A stretch of 34,236 nucleotides of DNA from Bacteriovoracaceae bacterium (lineage in GTDB: Bacteria > Bdellovibrionota > Bacteriovoracia > Bacteriovoracales > Bacteriovoracaceae), in NCBI GenBank assembly GCA_049599895.1, contig JBMYPC010000015.1, positions 1-34,236 of the forward strand. The letters are read 5' to 3'. Both the position numbers and the translations under genes were made by a program. The notes beneath the pieces are model-generated. The model worked only from the letters and a program-made list of their open reading frames with translations, was not told where the DNA came from and ran no database searches. Of the stretch, positions 1-21,079 are shown piece after piece; the first letter of the stretch is position 1; each line of letters starts with the position of its first letter.

Positions 1-1211
1 ATCTGAGGTGGGATTGATCCTGAAGCGATGATGGTTTCGCCGTTATAATTTTTTTCAAGGTAGTCTTTGAGTTTTTGAATATCTTCAGATTTCTTTTCAT
101 TACCAATAAGGCAAAATTTATTTTTGGGAGCAAAAACTGTTCGATAAGCTTTAGTGTGTGAGCCCATAGCACTAGTGATGAAAGCGATTGTAATGAAGCT
201 TAGAACCTTTTTTGACTTGAGAATCTCTGTTGAGTTTCGACTTAAAAGAAAAATCATAAAAAGAGGCGCTGAAATTTGCGCCCCATACTGAAAATGAAAA
301 TTATTAGCAATAAATTGAATCGCAAAGATAGGAAGAAGAAAGGCAAAGGTTTCAACTACGGGACTTTGAATTTTGAAGTCCTCTTTTTTTGAGTTTTTAA
401 GGGAGAGTATTCCCCATAAGAGAAAAGGGAAGAAGAGCTTTAAGAAGGCCTTATATTCAAATACTCCAAGAAGGCTAAAGAGTGCTTTAAATGGGTTCTC
501 TAAATAAGGCTTTAAAATTTGTGCTCCATAACCAATTGTTGGGCCAAGAAGAACTGATCGAAAGTGAAAGTTAAAGACGAGTATAAGAATTGAAATGACA
601 ACCAGAAGAGAACTCTTTTTGTCTTTTTTGATAATAAGTCGATAAAGCCCAAGAGTGAAAAGGCTAAAGGCAAAACTTTCTTTAAAAAAACAAATGGCAA
701 TACCTGAAAGGGCAATTCCAAGAAAAGAGTTTTTATAAATAAAGAGAACTAAAAGAGCTGCTGGAAACAAACTCCAGGTTGTAGGATGAATGGGATATTG
801 AAGACCGGAAAGGATTCCTTTTAAAAATAATCCACAAAATAAAAGAGTTATCCTAGTCTTTAAGGGAAGGGCCTTTGAGCTTTTCCATACCAAAGCCAAA
901 AAACCAAAAAACCAAAGATATTCAAAAACGAGCAATGACTCTGGTGAATATTGAAAGATCTTAGTAAAGACCGCCGCGATAAGAATCACGGGATCAAAAT
1001 GATCGTTGAAGATTTTGACGTTTCGAATCGTAATATAGGGATTAAGGCTTACACCATCTGCTATGTCATAGATGGCCTGCTGGTAGATTGAGAAGTCCGT
1101 TGCATGGATACAGCTATTATTTAAACGAACAATATTGCCAATGAGCGGCATAATAAAAAGGGTGAGAAACAACGTTCCCAGGAGAATCTTTGAAAGAGTG
1201 TTCGTTTTCAT
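1..1211 (-). CDS. DUF2079-like polytopic membrane protein (putative GT-C glycosyltransferase); 3' end runs off the window
   Basis: Not in the ORF track because it has no stop inside the window. Manual translation from ATG at 1211 gives MKTNTLSKILLGTLFLTLFIMPLIGNIVRLNNSCIHATDFSIYQQAIYDIADGVSLNPYITIRNVKIFNDHFDPVILIAA, and the same frame reads TIIASGSIPPQ at the window edge. It is a clear paralog of 7396..8835 (CTHAVDFSIYQQAI...NPYLTVRDMKIFNDHFDPIIL). Confidence 0.85.
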   Translation of the reverse strand, partial: MKTNTLSKILLGTLFLTLFIMPLIGNIVRLNNSCIHATDFSIYQQAIYDIADGVSLNPYITIRNVKIFNDHFDPVILIAAVFTKIFQYSPESLLVFEYLWFFGFLALVWKSSKALPLKTRITLLFCGLFLKGILSGLQYPIHPTTWSLFPAALLVLFIYKNSFLGIALSGIAICFFKESFAFSLFTLGLYRLIIKKDKKSSLLVVISILILVFNFHFRSVLLGPTIGYGAQILKPYLENPFKALFSLLGVFEYKAFLKLFFPFLLWGILSLKNSKKEDFKIQSPVVETFAFLLPIFAIQFIANNFHFQYGAQISAPLFMIFLLSRNSTEILKSKKVLSFITIAFITSAMGSHTKAYRTVFAPKNKFCLIGNEKKSEDIQKLKDYLEKNYNGETIIASGSIPPQ

Positions 1212-1275
1212 GAAGGACCATCATAAACGAGTCGAAAGGGATCGTGATTGTGCACCGCTCACGCTAAAGGCCTTC

Positions 1276-1304
1276 TTGGAGATCAATTTCATTAGTGGTA
1301 GGAT
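1276..1304 (+). promoter_or_regulatory. Putative sigma70 promoter for the epimerase-epimerase-GT2 operon
   Basis: TTGGAG-17 bp-TAGGAT with an extended -10 TG, about 35 nt upstream of the GTG start at 1339. Confidence 0.45.
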
Positions 1305-1338
1305 ACCTCGTTAATAATTCGACTATTAAAAGGTATTC

Positions 1339-2406
1339 GTGAAACGAGTTCTTATCACTGGTGGAGCTGGCTTTGTCGGTTCAAGCCTAGCGAAAATGAT
1401 TAAAGCAGATAATCCTCAATCTGAGGTCTGGGTTCTTGATAATCTTAAGCGCCGTGGATCGGAGCTTAATCTTCCAACCTTTGCTGAACTTGGAATCAAT
1501 TTTGTCCATGGAGATATTCGAGATTATTCAGACTTTGAGAATCTAAATGGTGATTTTGATCTTTTAATTGAGGCCTCGGCTGAACCATCTGTTCATAGTG
1601 GAATTTCAGGGGGCTTAAGTTATCTTGTCGATACTAATCTTTCGGGAACCTTAAACTGTCTTCGTTTTGCAAGAGAAAGATGTGAGAAAACTCTTTTTCT
1701 TTCCACTTCAAGAGTTTATTCAATTGATGCCCTAAGAGAAATTGAACTTGAAGAGAATGAAACTCGTTTTCAGGTCAAAGAGGGGATTGATTATCTCGGT
1801 CTTAGAGATGGCGGAATCCTAGAAAACTTTGATGTTTCAAGATTTAGATCATTTTATGGGACCACAAAATTATCTTCAGAATATTTTATTCAAGAATATG
1901 TCGAGACCTTTGGTCTTAAGGCCATCATTAATCGCTGTGGAGTGATTGCTGGGCCAGGGCAATTTGGAAAAGTTGATCAAGGAGTTTTCACTCTTTGGGT
2001 TGCCAATCATTACTTTAAAAAATCATTAAAATATATGGGCTTTGGTGGAAAAGGATTACAGGTTCGCGACCTTCTTCACCCTCGAGACCTTTACAATCTT
2101 ATTCTTGCTCAAGTGAAATCCAATCATAGTTGGAATGGAGAGGTTTACAATGTTGGCGGTGGTTTAAACTGTTCAACATCTCTTCTGGAATACACTAAGC
2201 TTGCTGAAGAAATCACTGGAAATAAAATTGAGATCGCTTCAGCTCCTGAAACAGCCAAAGTGGATATTCCTTATTATGTGACCAACACTGATAAAGCTGA
2301 AAAAGATTTTGATTGGAAAGTCAGCTATGATTCAAAGGCGATCGTTCAAGATATTTTTACGTGGATGAATGAGAACGAAGCCCTTGTAAGTAAAGTATTT
2401 AATTAG
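1339..2406 (+). CDS. NAD-dependent epimerase/dehydratase (CDP-paratose 2-epimerase-like extended SDR)
   Basis: TGGAGFVGS Rossmann motif, YGTTK catalytic YxxxK, QVRDLLH motif; GTG start after AAAGG. Confidence 0.9.
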   Translation: MKRVLITGGAGFVGSSLAKMIKADNPQSEVWVLDNLKRRGSELNLPTFAELGINFVHGDIRDYSDFENLNGDFDLLIEASAEPSVHSGISGGLSYLVDTNLSGTLNCLRFARERCEKTLFLSTSRVYSIDALREIELEENETRFQVKEGIDYLGLRDGGILENFDVSRFRSFYGTTKLSSEYFIQEYVETFGLKAIINRCGVIAGPGQFGKVDQGVFTLWVANHYFKKSLKYMGFGGKGLQVRDLLHPRDLYNLILAQVKSNHSWNGEVYNVGGGLNCSTSLLEYTKLAEEITGNKIEIASAPETAKVDIPYYVTNTDKAEKDFDWKVSYDSKAIVQDIFTWMNENEALVSKVFN

Positions 2407-2426
2407 ACCCTTAAAGGATAAATAAA

Positions 2427-3494
2427 ATGGCAGTGGTAATTGTAACTGGATCAGCAGGCCTAATTGGAAGTGAAGCTGTTAAATTCTTTCACGAAAAAGG
2501 TTTTGATGTTGTTGGGATTGATAACGATTTAAGAAAGTATTTCTTTGGTGATGACGCCTCAACTTCATGGAACCGGAAAAAACTTGAAGAGGGGCTTCCT
2601 CGCTATACTCATCATTCAATTGATATTAGAAACCTTGAAGACGTTCAAAATATTTTTAAAAAGTATGGATCGGATATTAAAACGGTCATCCATACAGCGG
2701 CTCAGCCTTCCCATGACTGGGCAGCGAGAGAGCCATTAACTGATTACAGTGTTAACGCAACCGGAACGATGAACCTTCTTGAGGCAACTCGAGAGATTTG
2801 CCCAGACGCTGCTTTTATTTTTACTTCAACCAATAAAGTCTATGGAGATACTCCAAATTTTCTTCCACTCGTTGAAAAAGAAACTCGTTATGAAGTGGAT
2901 GAGGCTCACGCCTATTTTAAAGATGGAATTGATGAGTCCATGTCTATTGACCAATGTAAGCACAGTCTTTTTGGTGCTTCAAAAGCGGCTGCAGACTTAA
3001 TGGTTCAGGAATACGGACGATACTTTGGTCTTAAGACCGGAACCTTTCGAGGTGGTTGTCTTACGGGTCCTGCTCACTCTGGAGCTGAACTTCATGGCTT
3101 TCTCGCTTATCTTGTAAAATGTGTGGTCACGGGAAAGAAGTACACAATCTTTGGTTATAAAGGAAAGCAGGTAAGAGACAATATTCATAGTTTTGATCTT
3201 GTATCAGCTTTTTGGGAATTTTCAGAAAAGCCTCGCTCTGGTGAAGTCTATAATATTGGCGGAAGTCGTTTTTCAAACTGCTCAATGCTTGAAGCGATCA
3301 CCATGTCTGAGAACTTTGCGGATCGAAAGCTTGATTACACTTTAAGTGATGACAACCGAATTGGTGACCATATTTGGTGGATCAGTGATGTGAATAAATT
3401 TAAATCTCATTATCCTAATTGGGATTTTAAATATGATATCGAAACAATTCTTAAAGAAATTGTCGAAGCGACAATTGAACGAGAAAGAAACTAG
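2427..3494 (+). CDS. NAD-dependent epimerase/dehydratase (CDP-paratose 2-epimerase-like)
   Basis: [39 protein letters not shown] motifs; SD AAGGA. Confidence 0.9.
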
Positions 3495-3503
3495 GATCGC
3501 TCT

Positions 3504-4238
3504 TTGAAACTCTCAATCGTCATTCCCGCCCATAATGAAGAAGGTTGTATTGAATCTACCGTAAGAGCTCTTCATGAAAAGCTTAAAGGGGAGAGTATTG
3601 AGCATGAGATTCTTGTGATCAATGATAATAGCTCTGATCGAACAGAAGAAATTTTAAAAAGTCTTAAAGATGAATCTTCATCAATAAATTATATTAACAA
3701 CCAGCCCCCTAACGGATTTGGTTTCGCTGTAAGAAGAGGCCTTGAAAGCTTCACTGGGGATGCAGTCGCTGTTTATATGGCCGATGCCTCTGATGATCCA
3801 AACGATGTGGTGAAGTTTTTCAGAAAGCTTGAAGAAGGTTATGACTGCGTCTTTGGTAATCGTTGGGCCAAAGAAGGTCGAGTTTATGATTATCCATGGT
3901 TTAAGCTTGTTCTTAACCGAGGTTTTAATTACTTTATAAGTCTTATTTTTCAAATTCGTTATCAAGATACGACTAACGCTTTTAAAATGTACCGAAAGCC
4001 TGTGATGGATGGACTTAGGCCATTTTTAAGTCACCATTTTAATCTTACTGTTGAACTTCCTCTTAAAGCGATTGTTCGAGGGTATTCCTATGCTGTGATT
4101 CCCAACAGCTGGACCAATCGAACGACAGGGGTTTCAAAGCTTAAGATTAAAGAGATGGGAAGTCGGTATTTGTTTATTGTGATTTATTGTTTCATCGAGA
4201 AATGGCTCTCACGAGGGGATTATAAAAAGGATTCCTAG
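3504..4238 (+). CDS. GT2 glycosyltransferase, polyprenol/dolichol-phosphate sugar synthase-like
   Basis: LSIVIPAHNEE, INDNSSD, GFGFAVRRG, MADASD, DTTNAFKMY motifs; TTG start after AGGA. Confidence 0.9.
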   Translation: MKLSIVIPAHNEEGCIESTVRALHEKLKGESIEHEILVINDNSSDRTEEILKSLKDESSSINYINNQPPNGFGFAVRRGLESFTGDAVAVYMADASDDPNDVVKFFRKLEEGYDCVFGNRWAKEGRVYDYPWFKLVLNRGFNYFISLIFQIRYQDTTNAFKMYRKPVMDGLRPFLSHHFNLTVELPLKAIVRGYSYAVIPNSWTNRTTGVSKLKIKEMGSRYLFIVIYCFIEKWLSRGDYKKDS

Positions 4239-4306
4239 CTGGGTCTTTCTTCCTCTTGGTGCTTATCTTTAGCTTTGGCAAATTGTTTTATTATAAACGA
4301 AAGCTC
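4235..4306 (-). pseudogene. Possible C-terminal remnant of a lost convergent gene (ELSFIIKQFAKAKDKHQEEERPS*)
   Basis: Stop-free minus-strand frame with no start. Its TAG overlaps the GT2 stop in the same geometry as the 4434 gene's stop overlaps the second GT2-end copy. Confidence 0.4.
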
Positions 4307-4391
4307 TTAGTTTTATCTGATCTCTAGACGAGATCATCTGTCCGCTCGATGCTTCAAAGCGTGCCACTGGCACCCTTTGCCGCAGACCGGT
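4304..4391 (-). repeat. REP/MITE-like multi-hairpin element, copy 1
   Basis: Reverse complement is 85/88 identical to 19121-19208. It contains the hairpins TGATCTC-N5-GAGATCA and CAAAGcGTGCCAcTGGCACcCTTTG. Confidence 0.9.
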
Positions 4392-4433
4392 TATTGAGAA
4401 ATGGCTCTCACGAGGTGATTACAAAAAAGACAG

Positions 4434-5849
4434 CTAAGATCTTTTCGATCTGAACCTAAAAATCAAGAGCATCATCAGAAGCAGACTAAATCCAGTCGTA
4501 TAAGAAGAAAAATAAAAGAGATTGTCATAAGTACTTGGCTTATCAAGAAGATTCCCACTTAAAAAGCCAAGTGGTCGCGAAGAACGATCGAGGAAGTAAA
4601 GTTTTGCGTGAGAATAGAGATCAGACTTTAAAAGATAGAGCCCAATTGAGCCAAGGATGAAGTAAGGAACTTTGGCTTTAAAGGTTTTTTGATGATCTTC
4701 AAAGCTTCTTACTGCTTGGAAGATAAAGAAAATGAGAGGGATCGTGAGAAACCTCGTACTAACTCTGATCCCTGAATAGACCGGTATGTGAAGGCTTTGA
4801 ACTAATTTATAAATTGGGCCAATTGAGATCAGTGTGAGAACGATAAAGGGAAGAAAGTAGTTTTTGATATAGGCTTCGTTTCGGTGTCTATAAACAAAAT
4901 AGAGAAGAAAGCCAAAGCCAATAAAACCAATATAGAAATTATGTTCAACCCATTCTCCACCCCAAGGATTGTGATAGCTTGGTTTTTCAGCGACGAGTAG
5001 ACCGTGAAAGAGTTGATCAATACTTCTAAAGGGATGAAGAAAATTCCCGTCTTTTCTTTTTCCAAGAAATTCAAAAACGGCAGGGATTGTTCGTATTGCT
5101 GAAAGTCCGGCCAGAAGTCCATAGCTCACGAGAACTTTCTTTGGGCAAAACTTATTGAAAAGAGCGTAAAGCATATAAAAAAGAGTGAAGATTAAAAGTA
5201 TGTGAAGACTTCCAAAAAAGATCAGCACACTAAGAGTGAAAACAAGATAGAGGTCGTGAATTGTAAATTTCTTCGGAGATAATCTTAGATTCTCAAAAAA
5301 GCAGTAAAGATAAGGTAAAAGAAAATATCCGTACCACATCAAATGTCCTCGATGCATCCTTGCGATAATTTGCCCGTTAAAGAAAAACAGAAGAAACAAA
5401 ATGGCATAACTCAGCCAATTGAGTTTGAACTGTCTTTTTAAAAGAAGTGTTCCAAGGAAGCCAATAAAGAGAATAAAGACCGTATTGATATGATCAAAGT
5501 TTCCAGGTGTTTTAAAATAATGAATAAAGGGAGTGAGTGGGGTAAAGGTCACTTCAGGGTTTGCAAGAAAGCTTTGGGATCCTTGAAAGAACTCTACTGT
5601 AAACCAGGGGAGAGTTTTCGTTTCAAAAGCCTCTTTGATTGTCGAAAGATATTTTAAATTTTTTGACCAATCGTAACCGTCGTAGGGGATAAGTCCCTTG
5701 GCGAGGATTCTTCGATAGATCTCTCTTGCCATATTGGTGAATGTGGCAAAAAAGAAGAGGAACACTGCAGTATTAGCAGCTTTTGATTTGAAACTTTGTT
5801 GGTAAAGCTTCTCAAGAAAGCTATTTATTTTGTCTTTTAAATTAGTCAT
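4434..5849 (-). CDS. Polytopic membrane protein, YfhO-like putative GT-C glycosyltransferase
   Basis: 471 aa with many TM segments. Motifs QSFLANP, GHLMW, EHNFYIG and RVSTRFL are shared with 8844..10523. Confidence 0.7.
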   Translation of the reverse strand: MTNLKDKINSFLEKLYQQSFKSKAANTAVFLFFFATFTNMAREIYRRILAKGLIPYDGYDWSKNLKYLSTIKEAFETKTLPWFTVEFFQGSQSFLANPEVTFTPLTPFIHYFKTPGNFDHINTVFILFIGFLGTLLLKRQFKLNWLSYAILFLLFFFNGQIIARMHRGHLMWYGYFLLPYLYCFFENLRLSPKKFTIHDLYLVFTLSVLIFFGSLHILLIFTLFYMLYALFNKFCPKKVLVSYGLLAGLSAIRTIPAVFEFLGKRKDGNFLHPFRSIDQLFHGLLVAEKPSYHNPWGGEWVEHNFYIGFIGFGFLLYFVYRHRNEAYIKNYFLPFIVLTLISIGPIYKLVQSLHIPVYSGIRVSTRFLTIPLIFFIFQAVRSFEDHQKTFKAKVPYFILGSIGLYLLKSDLYSHAKLYFLDRSSRPLGFLSGNLLDKPSTYDNLFYFSSYTTGFSLLLMMLLIFRFRSKRS

Positions 5850-5938
5850 AATGAAGTGCAGTATGACCCCGTAAATTATTGGTTTGCTTCACAAAAAGCG
5901 TACTTTATTTTTACACAACTTGTCGAACGGAAAGTAGA

Positions 5939-7399
5939 TTGGATCAGCTTAAAGAAAAGGCCTTAAAAAAGACACAAAAGACTCTAATGGTCATCTTTTG
6001 GATTATTCTTGCCCTTAAGTTGCTCGAATGTCTTTATCCATTTTCACATGGTGATGCTCTTAATTATCACCTTGTGATTGCAAAACTCGTCATGGCCTAT
6101 GACTGGAATTATGTCTTTCAGTATTTCTTTCCCGTTTACCTTGCTGGCTATTTTGAACTTATTTATTTTATTCCTGTGTTTTTGTTCAAAAATACACTTT
6201 GGGCACAACTCGCTGGTCAATTGATTCATTTTCTTTTCTCAGCCGGACTCGCAGTCTTTTTAAGTTTTAAATATATTAAAGACAAACGAAGTGCGATTTT
6301 AACCAGTCTCATGTTTCTTACGATCGCTATGGGTGGGGATTTTCTTCTCTATGCAAAGAATGACGGAGTCGTGGCCTCCCTCTGTCTTTGGATCTTTTTT
6401 ATTATTCATAAAAACCGAGAACAAAAAGAATATCCTCTTATTGGATTAGGACTTCTTTTTGGGATCGTGCCGGCGATTAAACTTTCTGGGGTTTTTGTTC
6501 TGATTCCACTCTTTGTTTATCTTGCTCTTAACTCTAAGAGTCTTATGAGATCGGCTCTTACAATTATTGGCGTATCTCTTTTCGTGTATTCACCTGTTCT
6601 TTTGATTAAGCATATCTATTTAGGTGGAGCTTATTTTTATCCTTCACTTTTAAACCTTTTCCCTGGAAACCTTCCTTCTGAAACAATCACAAGCTTTAAT
6701 GAGTTCACAAATGCTCCACTAAGAATGGAAACTTTTGTGAAAAATACACTTGTGGTGATGAAGGCCAAGTGGATTCTTCTTTTGTTGCCGCCACTTTTAT
6801 TCATAAGGCGAAGAGAACTTCGAGTCTTAAATACTTTTTATGGGTTAACCATTCTTTCCTATGTTCTCTATCTTATTGTTAATGGCGGAGTCTTTAGCGA
6901 AAGGTTTCTTTTTCCCATCGTTTTTATAGAGTTTGCGATATTGGGACTTGCATTTGAAAAGCTTAAAATTAAGCCAACTCAAGTATGGCCAATCTTGATT
7001 CTCATTTTTATTGATTCAAAAGTTGATAAGAGTATCAAACGAGTCTCTTTTGTTGGCGAGTATTTTAAGAAAGAAAGAGTCGTGATTCGAGAAGAGAAGA
7101 TCCCTCAGTCAAAAATTTGGAATTTTGTGACTTTGGATGATAAAGCTCCTCATTATATCTTCTCTGATAAGTTTGCTCAGATCTTTTATGGCCCTGATAA
7201 TGTGATTCTCGATCATTATCCTACAACACCTACTGCGAGCCTTTACACCAATTGCCAATCAATTGAAGATGTTGAGAAGTATCGCTATTTTATTTTGAGT
7301 GATGACTATAACCATAACCCAACTTGTGCCAAGGCCATTACAAACGAAACAAATCTCAAAGTGAGAATTCTTGACTTTGAATTGAGAGAAAGAAAATGA
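5939..7399 (+). CDS. Polytopic membrane protein, putative GT-C (ArnT/PMT-like) glycosyltransferase
   Basis: HGDALNYHL first-loop motif, AKNDG, IKLSG, ERFLFP and many TMs. The start is uncertain: TTG 5939 or ATG 5987; the ORF-track start at 5879 is too close to the divergent gene. Confidence 0.7.
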   Translation: MDQLKEKALKKTQKTLMVIFWIILALKLLECLYPFSHGDALNYHLVIAKLVMAYDWNYVFQYFFPVYLAGYFELIYFIPVFLFKNTLWAQLAGQLIHFLFSAGLAVFLSFKYIKDKRSAILTSLMFLTIAMGGDFLLYAKNDGVVASLCLWIFFIIHKNREQKEYPLIGLGLLFGIVPAIKLSGVFVLIPLFVYLALNSKSLMRSALTIIGVSLFVYSPVLLIKHIYLGGAYFYPSLLNLFPGNLPSETITSFNEFTNAPLRMETFVKNTLVVMKAKWILLLLPPLLFIRRRELRVLNTFYGLTILSYVLYLIVNGGVFSERFLFPIVFIEFAILGLAFEKLKIKPTQVWPILILIFIDSKVDKSIKRVSFVGEYFKKERVVIREEKIPQSKIWNFVTLDDKAPHYIFSDKFAQIFYGPDNVILDHYPTTPTASLYTNCQSIEDVEKYRYFILSDDYNHNPTCAKAITNETNLKVRILDFELRERK

Positions 7400-8835
7400 A
7401 GAGTTTGCATTTTAAGGGCTCTTGTCTTTTTCTTTTATTGATCTACTTGGTGATTCCTATTGGGCAAATCAATAATATTTTCACCCATTGCACCCACGCA
7501 GTTGATTTTTCAATTTACCAACAAGCAATAGGAGAGATCGCAAATACTGGGAACCTTAATCCGTATCTTACAGTCAGGGACATGAAGATCTTTAACGATC
7601 ATTTTGATCCCATTATTTTATTAGCGGCTCCTTTTGTGAAACTCTTTAATTACTGGCCTGGATCATACTTTCTTTTTGAGTATCTTTTTTTTACAGCACT
7701 TATTGCTCTCACTCTTTTTTATTGTAAACATTTAACTTTAAATCAAAGACTATCCGCCGTTTTGATGATCCTTTTTACAAAAGGAATCTTAAGTGGTTTG
7801 AATTTTCCCATTCATCCAACGACTTGGATTATGCTTCCTGGATTTCTTTTGCCATGGATAATTGAGCGTGATCGACCAAAAGAAATTATTGGCTTCTTTG
7901 TCCTCACAAGTCTTTTTAAAGAGACAATGCCACTAGTTTTAATGTGTTTAAGTTTAGTGTTTTTTAAAAGAAGAAAACTTTTCTTTGGGCTTCTTGCTTT
8001 TTGTATCGCTATGAATGTCTTTAACTTTCATTTTCGAGGGATTCTTTTTGGTGAGACAAAGGCTTATGCGGGGACATTCTCAAAGTTTACGAATGATCCC
8101 AATTTTAATGTCATTGATTTTATCTTAGGACAAAATTATAAAGCCATTTTCAAAATGTTTTTACCCTTTCTCTTTATTTATGGGTTTTTAATTAAAGACA
8201 AGAAGTGGAAAGACCCAACTGTGATTAAAACTCATTTTTTTGTCATTCCTGTATTTGGAATTCAGTACCTTAGAGAGGAGTTTCATTATCAGTATGGAGC
8301 GCAGATTGTGGCACCTCTTATAGGGCTTATCCTTCTTCCAAAGTTTAAATCAGTCTTTTTTGATAACAAGAGGCGCTTAGTTGCCCTTTGTCTTGTTTTC
8401 ATTTTAACGGGGATGGGATCGATCTCTAAAAATGTCCGTGCAGCACTTCGAATTAATCGAAAAAACTGCCTTCCTACACCTGAAAAGCGTTTTGAAAATG
8501 AACAGCTTCGTGAATTTGTAAGGTCAAGAATTAAGAACAATGAGACCGTTCTAGTCACTGGCGGGCTTGTTCCTGATCTCTATCGACCAGGTATGAAAAT
8601 CTATCAAATGGCCTATTTCTCAAAGGCTTTAGATTTTTATGATTATGTTATCTTTGAAAGAAAGCGAGGAGGACTCGTTTATCCTCTTCATGAAAATGAT
8701 ATTGAAAGCGAGTTTATTCCTGCCTGCAAAGAATCGTCAGAGGGAGTCGTTTTTGAAAGTGAATATTTTATTGTCTTTCATCAAGTTGGAGGACGATGTA
8801 TTGAACTCGTTGAAAAAAGAAGAGTTCATTTTTAA
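7396..8835 (+). CDS. DUF2079-like polytopic membrane protein (putative GT-C)
   Basis: DFSIYQQAI, DHFDPI, FPIHP, LFKE, FHYQY motifs; ATGA overlap with the upstream gene. Confidence 0.78.
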   Translation: MKSLHFKGSCLFLLLIYLVIPIGQINNIFTHCTHAVDFSIYQQAIGEIANTGNLNPYLTVRDMKIFNDHFDPIILLAAPFVKLFNYWPGSYFLFEYLFFTALIALTLFYCKHLTLNQRLSAVLMILFTKGILSGLNFPIHPTTWIMLPGFLLPWIIERDRPKEIIGFFVLTSLFKETMPLVLMCLSLVFFKRRKLFFGLLAFCIAMNVFNFHFRGILFGETKAYAGTFSKFTNDPNFNVIDFILGQNYKAIFKMFLPFLFIYGFLIKDKKWKDPTVIKTHFFVIPVFGIQYLREEFHYQYGAQIVAPLIGLILLPKFKSVFFDNKRRLVALCLVFILTGMGSISKNVRAALRINRKNCLPTPEKRFENEQLREFVRSRIKNNETVLVTGGLVPDLYRPGMKIYQMAYFSKALDFYDYVIFERKRGGLVYPLHENDIESEFIPACKESSEGVVFESEYFIVFHQVGGRCIELVEKRRVHF

Positions 8836-8843
8836 AGGTTTTA

Positions 8844-10523
8844 ATGTTTAAGACAAAAAAATTATCATTATTTTCAATCGTTCTTATTGTTCTAAGCTTT
8901 GGAACAAGTCTTTATTTCTTTAATATAAGCCTTGGTCACGATTGGGATTATTTTGATAGTCTCGCTCTTGTAAAGAGATCGTCTCTTTTAAACTTTGGAG
9001 AGTTTCCTCTTTTCGATCCCTTTATTTGCGGTGGGCAATCAATTCTTGCTAACCCTCAAAGTTGGTTGTTCTCACCCTTTATCTTACTTACTTTTTTATT
9101 TCCTCCTATTTTTTCAAATCTTATTTCGTGGATCATTTGTGCTGTTATCGGCTTCTTGGGGGCAAAGAGATTTTTTGGAAAATTTCTAAAAACCGATGCC
9201 ACAATCATTCTGTGCTCATTTTTATTTGTGAATTCAAGTTGGATTGGCCTTCATCTCTATGCGGGACATGTTCCTTATCGAACTTTTTGTTTTCTTCCTT
9301 TTCTTCTTTCCTTTATTCTCGATCGTCCCTCAAAAAAGAGTTACATCTCGATCTTTGCTCTTCTTTCTCTTTTTATTCTTGATGGGGGAATGTATGCATT
9401 TGTTTTTGCCTTTGTATGGACAATGGCGTCTTTTTTATTCAGACAGATTTCATTTAAAGAACATATGCTGTTTATAAAAAAGAATCTTCTCTTCATTGCA
9501 GCGGTAATGGGATCTTCTGTTTTGATTGCTTCGGCGAAGCTCTTCCCTTCGATTCTAGAACATCATGCAAGAGAACCGATTCTCGATTCGATTATTATTC
9601 GTTTGCCAGATCTTTTAAAATCATTTTTCTCTCCCTTTCAACGGACCATGGATCCGATTCTAAAGCATGTGGTGAACTTTCATGAGATTGGTTGTTATTT
9701 GGGAGTGATTGGATTCTCATTTTTTCTCTACGGTCTTTTTAGGGCAAAAATTCCAAGTAAAAAGAATATGCTTTGGGTTGGGGGACTGTTTCTTGTTATA
9801 GGGACAGGAATTTTTAAAGAGGGAAATCCCTATTCATTATTAGAGTTTATCCCTATCGTAAACAATGCCCACGTTCAAACCAGATATCTCATTATTTTTT
9901 ATCTCTATTTTCTTATTTTCTTAGGCCTTGGTCTCGAGAAGTTTAAATGGGCCGACAATAAAAAGTTTCTTTTCATTCTTGTCTTAATGTTTGAATCTTT
10001 CTTTGTCAGAATTTACACCTCATATTCAACATATAAAAAACGTCCTCTTGAAAATCCTTACTCTGTCTCGATTACACGAACAACTTACAAAGAGATGGCC
10101 CAAAAAGTGAAAAAGCCTGAGATTTATTTCACTGATGGAATCAACAGCCTGAAGTGCTACGAACCAGCAATGAGAGAACATAAAATATACTCATCTTTTG
10201 ACAAGGAGTATTACGGAGTTCTTGAAAATGAGAATTTAGATATTAATCATTTTTCATTTTCAGAGATCAATATAGAAAATAAAACCAAGATGAAGCAGTC
10301 TTCTCGCTTTAATATGGGCTATTCTGAGCACTTCATCAGTTCAGGTGAGGGGGCCATATCCCAAAATGACAACGGTGAATTTATAGTTGAAGTGGCCCCG
10401 TCTACTACTCTAAGCGTTAAATACAGACCTGGGTTTTTTAATCTTCTGATTTTCTGTTATATTCTTGGAATTCTTGGATTAAGCATCCTGTATTTTAAGT
10501 TTAGGAACACTGAAAATGAGTGA
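8844..10523 (+). CDS. Polytopic membrane protein, YfhO-like putative GT-C glycosyltransferase
   Basis: DWDYF, PLFDPFICGGQSILANPQ, AGHVPY, EIGCYLG, TRYL motifs; periplasmic C-domain and final TM. Confidence 0.72.
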   Translation: MFKTKKLSLFSIVLIVLSFGTSLYFFNISLGHDWDYFDSLALVKRSSLLNFGEFPLFDPFICGGQSILANPQSWLFSPFILLTFLFPPIFSNLISWIICAVIGFLGAKRFFGKFLKTDATIILCSFLFVNSSWIGLHLYAGHVPYRTFCFLPFLLSFILDRPSKKSYISIFALLSLFILDGGMYAFVFAFVWTMASFLFRQISFKEHMLFIKKNLLFIAAVMGSSVLIASAKLFPSILEHHAREPILDSIIIRLPDLLKSFFSPFQRTMDPILKHVVNFHEIGCYLGVIGFSFFLYGLFRAKIPSKKNMLWVGGLFLVIGTGIFKEGNPYSLLEFIPIVNNAHVQTRYLIIFYLYFLIFLGLGLEKFKWADNKKFLFILVLMFESFFVRIYTSYSTYKKRPLENPYSVSITRTTYKEMAQKVKKPEIYFTDGINSLKCYEPAMREHKIYSSFDKEYYGVLENENLDINHFSFSEINIENKTKMKQSSRFNMGYSEHFISSGEGAISQNDNGEFIVEVAPSTTLSVKYRPGFFNLLIFCYILGILGLSILYFKFRNTENE

Positions 10524-11280
10524 CTTTGATTACGATTCTATCCCTGTTGGCTATTACGATGACATTCTCGAGAATGGCTCTCCGATAAGAAAGTTTTGGC
10601 ATTGGCTTAAGTTTAATTCTGTTGAAAAAGTTGTTGAGGCCAGGCAAAAAGAAGCTCCTGGAACTTTATTGGATATTGGCTGCTTTGCTGGCTCGTTTCT
10701 TAAAACTCTCAACCTTGATCATTTTGAAAAGCTCCATGGTGTCGATATTCTTCAGAATCAAATTGATTACGCTAGTGAAACCCATGGCCATGAAAAGCGA
10801 ACTTTTCAATGCATCCCAGATTTTAAACAAGTTCTTGATAAGCCTATTTCAGATAGGCCCTTTGACTTCATTACAGTTATTGAAGTGATTGAGCATCTTC
10901 ATCTTCAAGAAATTCGCGATCTCATTCAATTTGTAGATGTGAATCTCAAGCCGGGTGGTCAGTTGATTATGACCACGCCAAATTACTTAAGTATCTGGCC
11001 TTTACTCGAGTATTATCTGAATCATTTTGCCGATATCACCTATGAAGAGCAGCATATTACAAAGTTTACCTATTTTAACTTTGATAAAAAGCTTGGAAAT
11101 ATCTCTCCACTTTTTAAAGAGAAGTATGATCTTGAGTTTAAGACTTCAACTCATACGTTAACTCCATTTCTAGCCCCACTAAGCTATGACTTTTCTCAAA
11201 GGCTTTCAGGTGTGATCACACCAAGAAAATGGTCTTTTCCTTTTGGGCCATTAGTTCTTGCGGTTTTTAAGAAAAAATAA
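10516..11280 (+). CDS. Class I SAM-dependent methyltransferase
   Basis: LLDIGCFAG motif I, FDFITVIEVIEHL, LKPGGQLIMTTPN. Confidence 0.88.
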   Translation: MSDFDYDSIPVGYYDDILENGSPIRKFWHWLKFNSVEKVVEARQKEAPGTLLDIGCFAGSFLKTLNLDHFEKLHGVDILQNQIDYASETHGHEKRTFQCIPDFKQVLDKPISDRPFDFITVIEVIEHLHLQEIRDLIQFVDVNLKPGGQLIMTTPNYLSIWPLLEYYLNHFADITYEEQHITKFTYFNFDKKLGNISPLFKEKYDLEFKTSTHTLTPFLAPLSYDFSQRLSGVITPRKWSFPFGPLVLAVFKKK

Positions 11281-12642
11281 TTAATCACAGCGAACAAGAA
11301 CAAGATCTTGGCTTTCTTTAACTTTTAGACAGTCTTTTGGAATCGGATTCTCTTTATAGAAAAGACCGTACCCAGATCTGACAGAGCCTTGTTTTTCACC
11401 AAAGCATGTTCCAAGTATGGGATAAGATTCATCTGGGGAGCGAAAGGGATATTCTCGATTCCAAGGAAATTCAGGAGTTGAATTTTTTAGATCCTTACAT
11501 TGAGCAGCGATTCGCCACTCTCTTTTTTTATGAGATTTAAATAAAGGTTTGATCCCATAGAAACTCTCAATCAAATTGAATACAAGAAGGGCTGCGAGAC
11601 TTACTTTAAGAAACTTATCGGGAAGGCTATTCAAGACCTGGCCAAAGAGAAGGCACGCGAGAGGAGCGACTCCTAGATAATAATAGGTATGCCAGAAAGC
11701 ATGGTTTCCTGTAACAAGATTAACGAAGATTATTTGAATCAAAAGACAAAGAATAAGGGGGATGTAATTTTTAAATCTTGATCTTCCAATTGTAAAAAAA
11801 TAAAGAAGAGGAATAATCCAAAGAAAAGGAAGAAAAAGCCTTTTGTGAAAGATGTGAAAGAACTGAATAAAGTCTGAAAAGATTTGGCTTATTGCAAGTG
11901 TTAGGCTCTTTGGTTTAGTTGAAAACATTGAGGAAATATCTGAATGAGAGTTAATAAAATCCACTCCCCAGATAAAATAGACTCCCGCTAGGGCCACAGA
12001 TACTGCCCCCAAAAAGAGCTCTTTTTTGTATTTCAAGGAAAGCATAGGGAGAAACAGAATAAAAAGATTGAGATTGGTGGGCTTAAGCATACCTCCAATG
12101 GCAATTAAGGCAATTGCGACAATAAGCTTTCTTTGCGCTCTAATTAATCCGACTCCTACAAAGATGGAGATCATGCTGAAATAATCAGGCATGAATTTCC
12201 CAAAGTAGGGATGGGAGAAACTTAAAAGAATAAGAAGAAGAGGCGAGACTCCAAATTCAAATCCAAAGAACTTTTGTTTTTTGTAAATCTGGTAGGCCCA
12301 CCAAGTCAGTGAAAGGTTAAGGGTTATCAGGATAAGACTTGCTAGGCTTTTTCCCCAGATAGGACCTAGGAAAAATACTGGAGCAAGGACGAGGTTGAGG
12401 ATGGGAAATTCCATCGCGTTAATCCCGTAAGCATTCCCCGATTGGAGAATCGCGGGGAGTAATGACTTAAAGCCTTGAAATCCTTCATTTGACCAACGGT
12501 TAAAATAGCGAAGAGTTACCCCAAGAGTATCGTACTGGCGCCACACATGAGGTCCCGTAAGAGCGACAAAGGCTCCTGTAAGCCAGAAGAAGACTCGTAG
12601 ACCGAAGAGATATTTAACGCTTCTCTCTAAACTTTTAATCAT
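11281..12642 (-). CDS. ArnT/GT39-like GT-C membrane glycosyltransferase
   Basis: HVWRQYDT, MEFPI, FMPD, LKP, HTYY motifs; many TMs. Confidence 0.72.
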   Translation of the reverse strand: MIKSLERSVKYLFGLRVFFWLTGAFVALTGPHVWRQYDTLGVTLRYFNRWSNEGFQGFKSLLPAILQSGNAYGINAMEFPILNLVLAPVFFLGPIWGKSLASLILITLNLSLTWWAYQIYKKQKFFGFEFGVSPLLLILLSFSHPYFGKFMPDYFSMISIFVGVGLIRAQRKLIVAIALIAIGGMLKPTNLNLFILFLPMLSLKYKKELFLGAVSVALAGVYFIWGVDFINSHSDISSMFSTKPKSLTLAISQIFSDFIQFFHIFHKRLFLPFLWIIPLLYFFTIGRSRFKNYIPLILCLLIQIIFVNLVTGNHAFWHTYYYLGVAPLACLLFGQVLNSLPDKFLKVSLAALLVFNLIESFYGIKPLFKSHKKREWRIAAQCKDLKNSTPEFPWNREYPFRSPDESYPILGTCFGEKQGSVRSGYGLFYKENPIPKDCLKVKESQDLVLVRCD

Positions 12643-16040: not shown

Positions 16041-16358
16041 ATGAAAATTATCTATCCCAAATCAAATTCTGAAAAACACATCGGTGTAACCGCTCCTTCA
16101 AGTGGTCTTGGAAATGATGTTTTTAATAGTCGGTTTAATTTAGTGCGCGATCAGCATAAGGAGAATGGTTTTGAGGTCACTGAAGGAGAGTGTCTTAGGG
16201 AGGACAACTTGTCTGTGAATGCTGATAGTAAGGCAAGAGCTGAAGACTTTCTTCGCATGTGGGAAAACCCAAAGATAAGTTTAATTCAGCCTCCGTGGGG
16301 AGGAGAGTTTTTAATTGATATTCTTGAGCATATTAATTTTGAAGAGCTTAAAGATTAA
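16041..16358 (+). pseudogene. Truncated S66 LD-carboxypeptidase/MccF-like peptidase (N-terminal third only)
   Basis: IGVTAPSSG, ARAEDF and PPWGGEF motifs, but it stops at 105 aa, just before the expected catalytic G(Y/F)SD serine. Confidence 0.75.
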
Positions 16359-16626
16359 TAATCAAATTGTTTCGGCGGCATGGGTAAAGTTTGACCAAGA
16401 TACGATTGAGCTTACCGAGATTGCCACAAGGCCTGAGTGCAAAAAACAGGGATATGCAAAGCGTCTTTTAGAAAGCATTGAGAAGTGGGGATTTCGACAA
16501 GGTTATAAGAAAATGTCTTTAAAGGTTAAAGAGGAAAATTTGCCGGCTATTAATCTTTATAAGTCATTAAGATACGGCAACAATGTGAACCTTAAGCAGT
16601 ATTGGGTTTACAAAAATAGGGCCTAA
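16315..16626 (+). pseudogene. GNAT acetyltransferase, C-terminal fragment
   Basis: IATRPECKKQGYAKRLL acetyl-CoA motif A and ENLPAINLYKSL motif B. There is no credible start or RBS, and the apparent N-terminus overlaps the peptidase fragment. Confidence 0.6.
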
Positions 16627-16681
16627 TTTCTACGTTATTTAATTCGACTTGATATAAGGTATTGAAAATATGTTAAAACCC

Positions 16682-16710
16682 TTGAATTAACTGTCTTTTT
16701 TTGATATTGT
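16682..16710 (+). promoter_or_regulatory. Putative sigma70 promoter, near-leaderless transcript of the ATPase operon
   Basis: TTGAAT-17 bp-TATTGT with extended TG; the ATG is 9 nt downstream and has no SD. Confidence 0.4.
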
Positions 16711-16719
16711 TATTCAAAT

Positions 16720-17877
16720 ATGGACAGTTATTTAAAAAGGTTAATTTACAAAGAACTGGAAGAATCTCTAGAAGACTACCCCGTTGTCGCAATTTTAGGG
16801 CCTAGGCAAGTTGGGAAATCAACTTTAGTAAGAGATTTACTGGAGGTTGAGTCAAAGGTTTATTTAGATCTGGAACTTAGTAGTGAGATCAGAAAACTAT
16901 CTGAGCCAGAAATTTTCTTTGACCGTCATGTTGATTCCTTAATTTGTTTGGATGAAATTCAACTTGCACCTGAAATTTTCAAAACGATTAGAGGGACTGT
17001 CGACAAAAATAAAAAAAATTCTCAGTTTTTAATTTTAGGGAGTGCTTCAAGGGATTTACTTAGACAGAGTAGTGAATCGTTGGCGGGAAGGATTTCTTAT
17101 TTGGAAATTATGCCCTTTAATATTTTAGAAGTTGGTGTTGAAAACTTTGAAAAACTTTGGGTCAGAGGAGGGTTTCCTAAAAGTTTTCTCGCTGCAAATA
17201 ATGAGAAAAGTTCAAAGTGGAGAGAGAACTATATTAGAACATACCTTGAAAGAGATATTCCACAATTGGGCTTTAATATTCCTGCAAAATCAATTGAGAG
17301 ATTGTGGAGAATGTTGGCCCATTCTCATGGGCAAACTTTAAATTCATCAAAAATTGCTAGCTCGCTTGGAGTTAGTTCACATACGGTTAATTCTTATATT
17401 GATATTTTGGAGCAAACGTTTCTCGTTAAATCATTAAGAGCGTTTGAACCTAATATTAAGAAACAATATATTAAATCTCCAAAAGTTTATTTGAGAGATA
17501 CCGGCCTTTTGCATACATTTCTTAATCTTGAGTCATTTGATGATCTCTTAGGGCATCAGGTGTTTGGGTCTTCATTTGAAGGTTTTGTTATAGAGAACTT
17601 AATGCAAATCTTTCCAAGATGGAAGTTCCACTACTATAGAAATAAGAGTGGAGCCGAAATAGATCTAATTATGTCTAAAGGAAACCGGAGACTTGCAATA
17701 GAGATCAAGGCATCTAAGGCACCAAAGTTAGCCAGAGGGTTTTGGACAGCTTGCAATGATATTAATGCTACAGATAAATTTGTCATCTCAATGGTTGATG
17801 ATTCTTATGAGATTCAAAATAATACTTATGTCACAAACTTGGAGTTGTTTTTAAAGGAAAAGGCAAATGAGATGTAG
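16720..17877 (+). CDS. AAA_14 ATPase with DUF4143 domain
   Basis: GPRQVGKS Walker A, LDEIQ Walker B, SESLAGR, RGGFP, KSPKVYLRDTG; C-terminal EIDL..AIEIK (PD-(D/E)xK-like). Confidence 0.9.
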   Translation: MDSYLKRLIYKELEESLEDYPVVAILGPRQVGKSTLVRDLLEVESKVYLDLELSSEIRKLSEPEIFFDRHVDSLICLDEIQLAPEIFKTIRGTVDKNKKNSQFLILGSASRDLLRQSSESLAGRISYLEIMPFNILEVGVENFEKLWVRGGFPKSFLAANNEKSSKWRENYIRTYLERDIPQLGFNIPAKSIERLWRMLAHSHGQTLNSSKIASSLGVSSHTVNSYIDILEQTFLVKSLRAFEPNIKKQYIKSPKVYLRDTGLLHTFLNLESFDDLLGHQVFGSSFEGFVIENLMQIFPRWKFHYYRNKSGAEIDLIMSKGNRRLAIEIKASKAPKLARGFWTACNDINATDKFVISMVDDSYEIQNNTYVTNLELFLKEKANEM

Positions 17878-18526: not shown

Positions 18527-19121
18527 TTTAGCTTTACTATTTTTAAGTTTATCCTGTTCGCAATTGACTCAAATTGAAAATGAAGATCATGCTGAGAGTG
18601 AGAGCATGATTGGTAAAGAGGAACAAACTAAGCAAAGTGTAAGATGCACTTCGGCTGGCAAAATTGAATATTACGAAGTCGGGGATCTGCCTTGCATAAG
18701 AAATAAACTAGATATTAATTCGAGAGAAAAGCTAATAATTCATTTTGTTATTACTAATAAAAACTCTGAAGACCCTTACAAATATGGATATCAAGAGCTC
18801 TTAAGGTATAAGGATGGAAAAGTTGTTGAGAAAATAAAACTTAGAAAAGATGGTGATGCTTATTGGACCATGGTTCCTTTCGTGAGGGTTAGAAAGCAAA
18901 AGTATTTTGAGGATTTAGACGGGGATGGAAGTTTAGAGTTTGCGGTATTCCCATTTCATCCAGGAAGTGCAATATGGATGAGAGCTCGAATCTTTAGCTT
19001 AAAAAAAACCATAGAGTTTTGGGGAGAGGGGAAATACCAATACGAGGGAAACTCATTTGTTCAGCTAAATTGTATGGATTGTTCAAAGTTTAATCCCAAG
19101 GCTTGTCAAAAATGTCAATGA
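18486..19121 (+). CDS. Putative lipoprotein with a DxDGDG Ca-binding (FG-GAP/VCBS-like) motif
   Basis: GAGG upstream of ATG 18486, hydrophobic stretch plus lipobox LSLSC, EDLDGDGSLEF, C-terminal CMDC...CQKC. Confidence 0.65.
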   Translation: MLEKFWTYIISLNSLALLFLSLSCSQLTQIENEDHAESESMIGKEEQTKQSVRCTSAGKIEYYEVGDLPCIRNKLDINSREKLIIHFVITNKNSEDPYKYGYQELLRYKDGKVVEKIKLRKDGDAYWTMVPFVRVRKQKYFEDLDGDGSLEFAVFPFHPGSAIWMRARIFSLKKTIEFWGEGKYQYEGNSFVQLNCMDCSKFNPKACQKCQ

Positions 19122-19208
19122 CCGGTCTGCAGCAAAGGGTGCCAGTGGCACGCTTTGAAGCATCGAGCGGACAGATGATCTCGTTCAGAGATCAGATAAA
19201 ACTAAGAG
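19121..19208 (+). repeat. REP/MITE-like multi-hairpin element, copy 2
   Basis: 85/88 identity to the reverse complement of 4304-4391; begins at the stop codon of the lipoprotein gene. Confidence 0.9.
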
Positions 19209-19294
19209 TAGTATTTTATAAGAAGTTTTTTAATTCGCTTGCGCTCATATCGCGCGCTTTCCGTGCGCTGACGCTTACTCGCTTGCTTGTCTGC

Positions 19295-19333
19295 CTCGCT
19301 TCAAAAGTGTCCACTGGACACTTTTGATGCGAG
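19295..19333. repeat. Long palindrome related to the REP-like element, directly after the rpoD stop; may also act as a terminator
   Basis: CTCGC-t-TCAAAAGTGTCCA-c-TGGACACTTTTGA-t-GCGAG; same CCA(C/G)TGG centre and AAAG...CTTT arms as the hairpin at 19128-19162. Confidence 0.8.
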
Positions 19334-21079
19334 TCAGTTATCGATGTAGCTTTTAAGCTGTTTCGCACGACTAGGATGTCTAAGCTTTCTTAGCGCCTTG
19401 GCTTCAATCTGCCTGATACGTTCTCTTGTAACGAAGAAATCTTGACCAACTTCCTCGAGAGTGTGGTCAGATTTTTCACCGATTCCAAAGCGCATTCTTA
19501 AAACTTTTTCCTCACGTGGAGTTAGGGTTGAAAGGACACTTCTGGTGGCCTCACTCAGTGTGATGCTCATGACAGCGTCTTGAGGTGAGATGATTTTTTT
19601 ATCTTCGATAAAATCTCCGAGTGATGAATCTTCTTCTTCACCAATTGGAGTTTCAAGAGAGATAGGCTCTTTTGAAATCTTTTGAACTTTTTTAACTTTC
19701 TCAACTGGAAGTTCCATTCTCTCAGCAATTTCTTCTGGAGTTGGCTCTCGTCCAAGTTCTTGAATGAGTTGTCTTGAAGTTCTTACCATTTTGTTGATGG
19801 TTTCGATCATGTGGACAGGGATACGAATTGTTCTTGCTTGGTCAGCAATGGCTCTTGTAATCGCCTGACGAATCCACCACGTGGCATATGTTGAGAATTT
19901 ATAACCACGACGGTACTCAAACTTATCAACCGCTTTCATAAGACCAATGTTTCCTTCTTGAATGAGATCAAGGAATTGAAGTCCACGGTTTGTATATTTT
20001 TTAGCAATTGAAACAACAAGACGAAGGTTGGCTTCAACAAGTTGGGCCTTGGCTTTATCGGCTTTTTCTTCACCCTTAAGAATAATCTTATAAACTTTTT
20101 CGATGTCAGCGAATTCCATTCCAGCGTCAATTTCAAGGCGTCTAAGGCGTCTTAAAATGTCTTCTTGGTTTCTGATAAGCTGCTCGATCTTTGCATCAGA
20201 TGTGAAAAGGTCTTTTGCAAGAGTTCTTTTGTAGTTATCGTCATCCATTACTTTGTCGTAAAGTTGGCGATACTCTTCGATATTAGGGACTTCAAGAAAC
20301 TTAAAAATACGATCTTGTTGTCCATAGAGATCTTTAAATTTTAAATAGTACTTCTTAACAGGATCAACAAAGCTGTTGATGATTTTTCTGTTGAAAGTCA
20401 GATCGGCAAGAGTGAGTCCAAACTCGTCCATTCTTTTCTTTTGAGCTTCATCAAACTTTTTCATTGTTCCGTCTTCAAGCTCAACTTCTTTAAGAATAGA
20501 CTCAAGGTCATCACAGACTTTATAAATCGTTTCTTGCGTTTTCTTAATATCTGCTGGACTTGATTCATCATCAAGGCCACGAACAAGTTCTTTTACAAAT
20601 TCTGCTTGATTATCTTGAGTTTCAACTCTTTCTTTAAGTTTAATAATTTCTTTAATCGCGTGAGTTGAAGAAATAGCAGAAAGAACGATTTCTCTTTCAC
20701 CTTCTTCAATTTCTTTAGCGATATGAACTTCACCTTCTCTTGTAAGAAGGGCAACTGAACCCATTCTTTTAAGGTAAAGCTTTACTGGGTCTGTCGAAGC
20801 TGAACGAAGCTCGGCTTTTTCTTCTTTTGAAAGGGCCTCTTCAATAACTTCTGTACCATCAAGCTTGATTCCTTCTTCGTCTTCTTCAACTTGTTGGTTT
20901 TGAATTTCAATTCTTGCTTCAGCGATTTTTAGAATAATTTCATCCACTGAATCAGGCTCAACAATCCCTGCAGGAATCGCATCATTGATCTCTTCTGGTG
21001 TGAGATACGATTGATCTTTTCCCTTGAGGATAAGCTTTGAGAATTCTCTTGAGTTAATGAACGCAGTAACGACTGACAT
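19334..21079 (-). CDS. rpoD: RNA polymerase primary sigma factor sigma70
   Basis: Region 1.2 [49 protein letters not shown]. Confidence 0.98.

Follow-up and report, generated by a model that had tools for sequence, protein, structure and literature searches.

We analysed a 34,236-nucleotide (nt) window, i.e., positions 1 to 34,236 of contig JBMYPC010000015.1 of a Bacteriovoracaceae bacterium (GCA_049599895.1; contig C15 of genome G000), in which the 3' end of a family 2 glycosyltransferase (GT2) gene is present twice around a small DNA hairpin. The 199-nt unit at 4192..4390 (plus strand), composed of the working gene tail, a spacer, an accessory hairpin and a core hairpin ending in CGG, is probably a gene-less mobile insert that came from a related lineage, replaced the tail of the GT2 gene and left the native tail stranded behind it. 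Hairpin units that replace gene tails form a wider class, of which the GT2 feature is one member.

The GT2 gene (3504..4238, plus strand; 244 amino acids (aa); PF00535, E = 4.5e-26) is intact with its upstream tail in use, and many of its homologues carry the source-given name dolichol-phosphate mannosyltransferase. The peptide IEKWLSRGDYKKDS and its stop codon are encoded at both 4194-4238 and 4393-4437, offset by 199 nt. The two copies differ at 8 of 45 nt, all of them silent changes, around a perfect 20-nt core (4197-4216 and 4396-4415), and when eight substitutions were placed at random, the peptide was never preserved (200,000 trials with each of two mutation models). Sequence and trials thus confirm what the first-pass annotation had described, i.e., the last 15 codons of the gene present twice with purely silent differences. 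Its proposal that both tails were once functional gene ends in different lineages also stands, the best evidence being the behavior of the hairpin family at metK in relatives, and so does its likening of the layout to attachment (att) sites, as the insert restores the 3' end of the gene. The part of the working tail (4192..4238, plus strand; stop codon TAG) that lies 3' of the core is likely donor-derived. The corresponding part of the spare tail (4391..4437, plus strand; stop codon TAA), which has no start codon and begins directly behind the repeat, is likely native.

The hairpin element annotated at the joint was confirmed as an 88-nt repeat (4304-4391) with copies 85–96% identical elsewhere in the genome, at 19115-19208 of the window and on contigs C105 and C53. 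It contains an accessory module with a small GATCTC/GAGATC hairpin (4304..4340, plus strand; common to the copies at 19172-19208, on C105 and on C53) and a 50-nt core DNA hairpin with the 3' end CGG (4341..4390, plus strand; stem 4355-4379, loop ACT at 4366-4368, C-C mismatch between 4360 and 4374). The limits of the unit were set by the repeat offset of 199 nt, the junction after CGG and the same layout at other loci.

The two stop regions have features of their own. A swap between TCN and AGY serine codons is found on each strand at both stops (4229-4242 and 4428-4441), and the hexamer preceding the spare stop matches, as a reverse complement, the bases that surround the working stop. The two regions could be interconverted by a 10-nt inversion together with two changes, a relationship that may be chance. 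The idea that recoding of the tail builds a hairpin was rejected, because the working tail with its flank folds less stably than the spare tail would (−7.5 vs −11.5 kcal/mol for GT2 and −16.4 vs −18.4 kcal/mol for wcaJ, a second target); the fold of the whole GT2 unit is weakly better than that of shuffles (z = −1.7).

The hairpin family and its one-sided rule

About 46 hairpins of the family are present in G000, and the 50-nt core was found on more than 20 contigs. Covariation supports the stem, with 93.8% of cells paired and 63 double changes, compared with 19 in shuffles and with 34–45% in slid controls, values that are inflated by related sequences. The C-C mismatch is kept in 37 of the 46 distinct copies and the CGG 3' end in 28. 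G-U pairs are rare in the stem, as would suit a DNA hairpin read on one strand. With a covariance model, 22 of 149 genomes from the taxonomic family of G000 were positive, with 1–18 copies each, and a looser pattern matched 16 of 300 genomes and also detected the hairpin in other families of the phylum; in light of these matches, the zero count of the strict 50-nt pattern in 120 family genomes is misleading. No viral contig matched either of two hairpin patterns, and a search of 4100-4600 against Rfam at the gathering score returned two chance-level matches only. Most hairpins occur singly or as direct tandem copies, and some (uncounted) stand back-to-back with a variant hairpin. The variant hairpin, in opposite orientation, abuts the CCA end of several tRNA genes of G000 (contigs C1, C88, C118, C193, C200, C222 and C242); where these were tested, no tail copy was detected.

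The position of the copied sequence follows a one-sided rule. In G000, a copy of sequence from upstream of the hairpin was detected on the 3' side of 9 of the 46 hairpins. The wrong side of the hairpins gave 2 of 44 and random positions 1 of 230. Among the relatives the corresponding values were 44 of 68, 15 of 67 and 18 of 340, counts that rest on 74 loci and are inflated by tandem arrays. The copy begins 9–21 nt past the hairpin core (most often 12–13 nt), the units are 94–326 nt long, and in the diverged cases of G000 the similarity gives out at the stop codon or tRNA end, or a few bases from it.

The targets are diverse. The wcaJ gene on C8 has a recoded tail with 7 differences in 42 nt, all silent, where 1–4 of 200,000 random trials kept the peptide; the aconitase gene shows one silent difference and a changed last codon. 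Further targets in G000 are tRNA-Gly (both ends) and tRNA-Cys (twice). A search by hand added an Lrp/AsnC-domain gene, which is copied exactly, the tRNA-Pro 5' end and a short case at rpsS. Many tRNA and tmRNA ends, metK, queC and gmhA are among the targets in relatives. Glycosylation genes are thus a minority beside tRNAs and housekeeping genes. Exact or nearly exact duplications of tail plus flank were found at C18, L260, L261 and L265, an array of two identical 100-nt units on C45, and arrays of four near-identical units in G129 (175 nt at L271, C23:293954-294530; 247 nt at L298, C58:168956-169748). A candidate rule, TAG in the working and TAA in the spare tail, held for four cases in G000 and was dropped, being mostly reversed at metK. 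At one tmRNA gene (L234, G082:C62), the hairpin adjoins both the gene and an open reading frame (ORF) for a putative large serine recombinase.

Cross-species comparison at metK

Genus g16, of the same taxonomic family as G000, was used for a cross-species test, the comparison set being free of congeners of G000. A 149-nt unit is present at the same base of metK in 4 of the 12 genomes parsed (of 13, all but G407). In three of these species (G015, G390 and G320), the working tails are identical over all 51 nt and the units match at 146–148 of 149 positions, while the gene bodies differ by 4–8%. The 500 nt upstream of the unit are 92–96% identical, with differences reaching the codon before the unit. 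Between G015 and G320, the onset of identity is sharp and coincides with the repeat's first base, the last 50 nt upstream being identical at 46 positions. The four spare tails differ from each other at 4–8 of 51 nt, with silent changes only in 8 of the 10 variable codons, and from the working tails at 11–16 of 51 nt. The unit is not frozen by nature, because the one at the same site in G396 has diverged by ~15%. The probability of at most one difference in 149 nt is 2.5e-4 at 7% divergence, 0.002 for G390 and G320 and 0.06 for G015 and G390, values that presuppose no stronger constraint on the unit than on the gene body. The simplest reading of these sequences would be that the metK unit swept recently between species and that the spare tails were working ends until then.

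Two explanations without a sweep of this kind have to be weighed here. In one, an old local duplication is present and its two tails alternate as the working end, through excision and regain or through conversion, with no transfer across species. Exact or near-exact duplications of tail plus flank are indeed known (C18, L260, L261 and L265), and the spare metK tails evolve like coding sequence, at distances that roughly follow those of the gene bodies. Such cycling would homogenize the tails, yet those of metK differ at 11–16 of 51 nt; it leaves unexplained why the working tails are frozen at 0 of 51 nt across species 4–8% apart, and the GT2 spacer shows no relation to the sequence that follows the spare tail. 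We consider alternating tails unlikely.

In the other, linear DNA enters by homology-facilitated uptake, a process in which recombination in a homologous stretch is coupled to an illegitimate joint elsewhere. Recombination would then have occurred in the body of the GT2 gene and the illegitimate joint at the hairpin, which would be nothing more than a hot spot. This accounts for one donor-like and one native-like tail without any circle, and it suits two GT2 homologues that carry a second tail where no family hairpin is seen, e.g., L079 with its order of tail, truncated frame and second tail. It does not predict the sharp left boundary at metK, where G015 and G320 have no co-converted tract upstream, nor the same metK junction in four species. 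Uptake of linear DNA is, in our judgment, a distinctly unlikely origin of the unit.

The two homologues came from a scan of 164 homologous GT2 loci, 146 of which were usable (18 lacked a 300-nt flank or a stop). At L079 (1858-2461), the GT2 homologue is followed by a truncated 118-aa frame, presumably methyltransferase-like, and then by a second GT2 tail, changed both silently and non-silently. At L087 (6686-7735; a Spirochaetia metagenome-assembled genome), it is followed by ~940 nt with convergent ORFs of 117 and 131 aa, which we take to resemble a bacterial nuclease/immunity pair, and by a diverged second tail.

Insertion without exchange of neighbors

The downstream neighbor is the same at filled and empty sites of both metK, where this holds for all six close species, and gmhA, where G320 has the unit and seven other genomes with a matching downstream region are empty (8 of 9 genomes parsed, all but G386). 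The queC unit is present in one of the eight genomes shown. Because the downstream genes are the same with and without a unit, the units insert rather than swap neighbors.

This bears on the suggestion, made from the sequence of the window, that a glycosylation cassette downstream of GT2 was replaced through anchoring repeats, with the spacer as the stump of the displaced gene. The 65-nt spacer (4239..4303, plus strand) is unlike the present flank: its alignment to the sequence behind the spare tail is no better than that of shuffles, 34% of which score as high, and the same result dismissed the idea that it is a decayed copy of the end of the convergent gene. A replacement would also suit the minus-strand frame of the spacer, which runs for 22 codons without a stop, the failure to find the convergent gene in 200 genomes of the family and the varied downstream neighbors of GT2 homologues. 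Against this, the spacer frame cannot be told from intergenic DNA: 29% of 60,668 intergenic 66-mers are equally free of stops, 37% of these score as coding-like as the spacer frame, and of 1,322 real gene ends 18% score no higher. The frame has no other match in G000 or in the 164 GT2 loci, and an 18-nt match on C21, in an AT-rich stretch, was taken as chance. The start-less convergent frame therefore lends no support to a gene remnant. The spacer is probably the donor lineage's own 3' flank.

With the neighbors unchanged at metK and gmhA, targets that are mostly tRNA and housekeeping genes and a mobile piece that is the 199-nt unit itself, a swap of the glycosylation cassette was not borne out, and we regard it as very unlikely. 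For the nearest homologues of the GT2 protein (76% identity) and of the convergent protein (46%), the longest contig is given as 44,320 nt in both cases; this also argues against a swap and is a weak hint that the two genes may have been neighbors for long. The convergent gene (4434..5849, minus strand; 471 aa), the stop of which overlaps the spare tail, has no match in Pfam or NCBIfam, and the label YfhO-like given to it was not supported. Three other homologues of its product were found (best 46%), and none in 200 genomes of the family with this query. The overlapping TAG of a convergent frame at both GT2 stops, which had been read as identical geometry, loses its value as evidence because it follows automatically from a serine codon ending in C before TAA or TAG.

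Assembly and points against the reading

Run X1, a possible source assembly of the window, and three further runs (X2–X4) were compared at the contig level. An assembly artefact would mean that the repeat served to join two loci or two strains. No X1 contig bridges the repeat, as one covers 1-4357 and the next 4355-12000 with the break inside the repeat core, and a 176-nt contig of X2 (depth 2.8) covers 4262-4390 and continues into 47 letters foreign to the window. The latter can be a low-depth join through a 35-nt core common to the copies on C163, or a real variant. Both sides match X1 contigs with no difference, at depths of 9.3 and 8.7, and a second GT2 allele was not listed. The break coincides with a 53-nt core that recurs in the copy at 19128-19180, and at such a place an assembler working with short words must break. 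A random mis-join would hardly place a homologous tail exactly where the rule of the family predicts it, and we give an artefact very little credence.

Several points weigh against a mobile insert that replaced the GT2 tail, and they are gathered here. In G000, 37 of the 46 hairpins have no detected copy, and two of the nine positives (C105 and C163) duplicate modules of the element itself, while tandem arrays raise the counts in relatives. The wcaJ tails have no long perfect core. Spare tails may also arise without this hairpin, because 2 of the 146 GT2 homologues (L079 and L087) carry one with amino-acid changes and no family hairpin seen by eye. At metK, the comparison of G015 and G390 alone is not significant (P = 0.06), the probabilities depend on the assumed constraint, and the equation of the spare with the native tail is one that we infer from sequence. 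It is challenged by G344, a genome without the unit and with a gene body 97% identical to that of G015, the single tail of which is 10 of 51 nt away from both tails of G015. A crossover within the core rests on one polarized base in G320. The history of the GT2 locus is carried over by analogy from other loci of the family, because the GT2 cluster has one member, the best other homologue in the protein search being 76% identical; among the 80 + 80 loci kept from the scan, GT2 matches were at most 73% identical. In addition, no enzyme tracks the hairpin among those compared (RAYT, tyrosine recombinase and GIY-YIG).

At the metK end of G344 (L333), the single tail looks like a mosaic of spare-type and unit-type sequence and is followed by a different structured module.

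Proposed mechanism and candidate enzymes

The mobile insert could move as follows. A single-strand nuclease or recombinase, of the host or acting in trans, would recognize the folded hairpin and cut after CGG. Tail, spacer and hairpin would be released together, probably as a small circle, which would re-enter a homologous gene end by a crossover inside a short identical core (the 20-mer in the case of GT2). Re-entry into the same genome would give exact tandem copies and entry into another species recoded copies. Units would be seen at gene and tRNA ends because only insertions that rebuild the gene would survive. Repeated copying of a circle is compatible with the tandem arrays of identical units. 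The metK of G320 fits a crossover within the core at a single site, where the working copy retains the species-specific base 5' of the core and the spare has the base of the other species. No joint skipping or repeating the unit is listed among the contigs of X1–X4, a comparison that rare forms could escape.

Tentatively, and as a possibility that we hold less firmly than the insertion at GT2, the units may form an undescribed class of selfish element, i.e., gene-less "tail-homing" units of 100–250 nt made of a single-stranded DNA (ssDNA) hairpin and their own copy of a gene end. Such units would circularize, cross between species, home into the orthologous gene end and silently rewrite the tails of essential genes.

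Candidate enzymes were compared with the distribution of the hairpin. The RAYT family was rejected for lack of association: of 11 hairpin-positive genomes, 8 have RAYT-like genes, as do 22 of the 25 others, which are not proven hairpin-free and two of which were later positive by the covariance model. A hairpin lies near one of the 13 RAYT loci scanned (L247): in G344, a hairpin unit with a 21-nt duplicate (L247:1099-1240) is found ~330 nt upstream of a RAYT gene passing the family cut-off. The only Y1/RAYT-like gene of G000 (C53:3416-4110) scores 63.6 bits, below the NF047646 cut-off of 80. Its flanks carry a second repeat family as an inverted pair; this second family, found on C53 and 10 other contigs, has 24 copies, mostly as REPIN-like inverted doublets 140–220 nt apart. 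GIY-YIG was likewise rejected, with one gene in G000 and no hairpin on its contig. PF00589 (tyrosine recombinase) has seven matches in G000, two of which (C193 and C83) are near hairpins at tRNA/tmRNA sites. None is on the contig of the window and no integrase was found among the 16 window ORFs scanned, in agreement with the first reading of the sequence.

Relation to known elements

No description of recoded tails with such hairpins was found in the literature searched, subscription journals and supplements being outside its coverage. The present analysis contributes a one-sided rule tested against controls and a comparison of metK across species.

Replacement of a gene end at an att site is familiar from prophage e14 in icd. 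The hairpin units resemble such att-site replacement and the microCIMEs of Streptococcus salivarius, which are gene-less and 130–220 bp long (PMC7563491), in that an insert flanked by direct repeats, of the same size range, restores the 3' end of a gene. As described in the part of that paper used here, microCIMEs are tied to integrases, have few fixed targets and are found arranged tandemly with ICEs and IMEs (integrative conjugative and mobilizable elements) (PMC7563491). The hairpin units differ from integrative elements and CIMEs so described in that one hairpin family is found at many unrelated targets, at both ends of tRNA and tmRNA genes and on either strand. They further differ from microCIMEs in that their repeats range from ~14 to more than 100 nt and mostly have no larger element alongside. 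Direct repeats restoring the end of the target gene were thus found, as in integrative elements; in place of one attB with an integrase there are many targets, and no integrase among the 16 window ORFs scanned.

Repetitive extragenic palindromic (REP) sequences, BIMEs and REPINs (PMC8266576, PMC3116915) are, as the parts considered describe them, also small extragenic ssDNA hairpins with a conserved stem mismatch and tandem clusters that repeat their flanks. As with REP and its TnpA-REP (RAYT), a cut by an HUH enzyme beside the hairpin is plausible. Unlike in REP and REPIN, the stem has no GTAG at its foot (none in the 32 sequences of alignment A3), CGG takes the place of C|T at the junction, the hairpins appear mostly not to be organized as inverted doublets, and the RAYT-like gene of G000 has a different repeat; recoded tails do not appear in the portions of the REP accounts considered. 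The family is a multi-copy, extragenic, imperfect palindrome like REP (46 hairpins with a covarying stem), and a cognate RAYT flanked by the same repeat was not found: the C53 gene has another repeat, 1 of the 13 RAYT loci scanned has the hairpin nearby, and RAYT and hairpin show no association across 36 genomes.

A similar layout is that of the tRNA-linked repeats (TLRs) of Escherichia coli, which the hairpin units generalize. In the excerpt considered, TLRs are units behind tRNA or rRNA genes that end in a copy of the 3' end of the gene, often in tandem, and that are called of unknown function and origin (PMC8144298). The TLR copy is described there as fixed at 18–19 bp and restricted to tRNA/rRNA operons, whereas GT2 is a protein gene with a 47-nt copy, and the copies of the hairpin units vary in length, include tRNA 5' ends and belong to a unit common to several species. 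[quoted passage not shown] As far as the cited part goes, PATEs have near-terminal palindromes and neither terminal inverted repeats nor target duplication (PMC3119063), whereas duplication is the hallmark here and the conserved hairpin is at one end only. MITEs, as outlined in PMC3184786, have terminal inverted repeats and duplicate their target freshly over a short fixed length; the unit has no terminal inverted repeats, and its copies (~14 to more than 100 nt) can be recoded.

Other features of the window

A second copy of the 88-nt element (19121..19208, minus strand) abuts the stop of an ORF at 18474-19121, and a third hairpin of the family (19297..19336, plus strand) abuts the stop of rpoD; a tail copy was not detected at either. 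These two hairpins end the region from SNF2 to rpoD (16041-19336), which contains an S66 peptidase fragment, a short GNAT frame, an AAA/DUF4143 gene, an SLT-domain gene and an unknown ORF. With a GC content of 33–36% over much of its length, the region is possibly an island. Within the glycosylation cluster, 3-1211 and 7396-8835 encode, on opposite strands, paralogous proteins that are 40% identical over 392 aa; the second has a weak match to DUF2079.

Implications

The effect on GT2 itself is probably nil, as the protein is unchanged. The spread of small extragenic hairpins is a long-standing question, and the dissemination of REP is called poorly understood in the part of the account cited (PMC8266576); the units described here record their own history, in the form of a donor tail and a stranded native tail. 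The near-identical 149-nt metK unit in diverged species makes the mechanism directly testable. If homing is real, gene ends could be exchanged across species without any encoded gene, and the units might also offer a compact chemistry for site-directed insertion.

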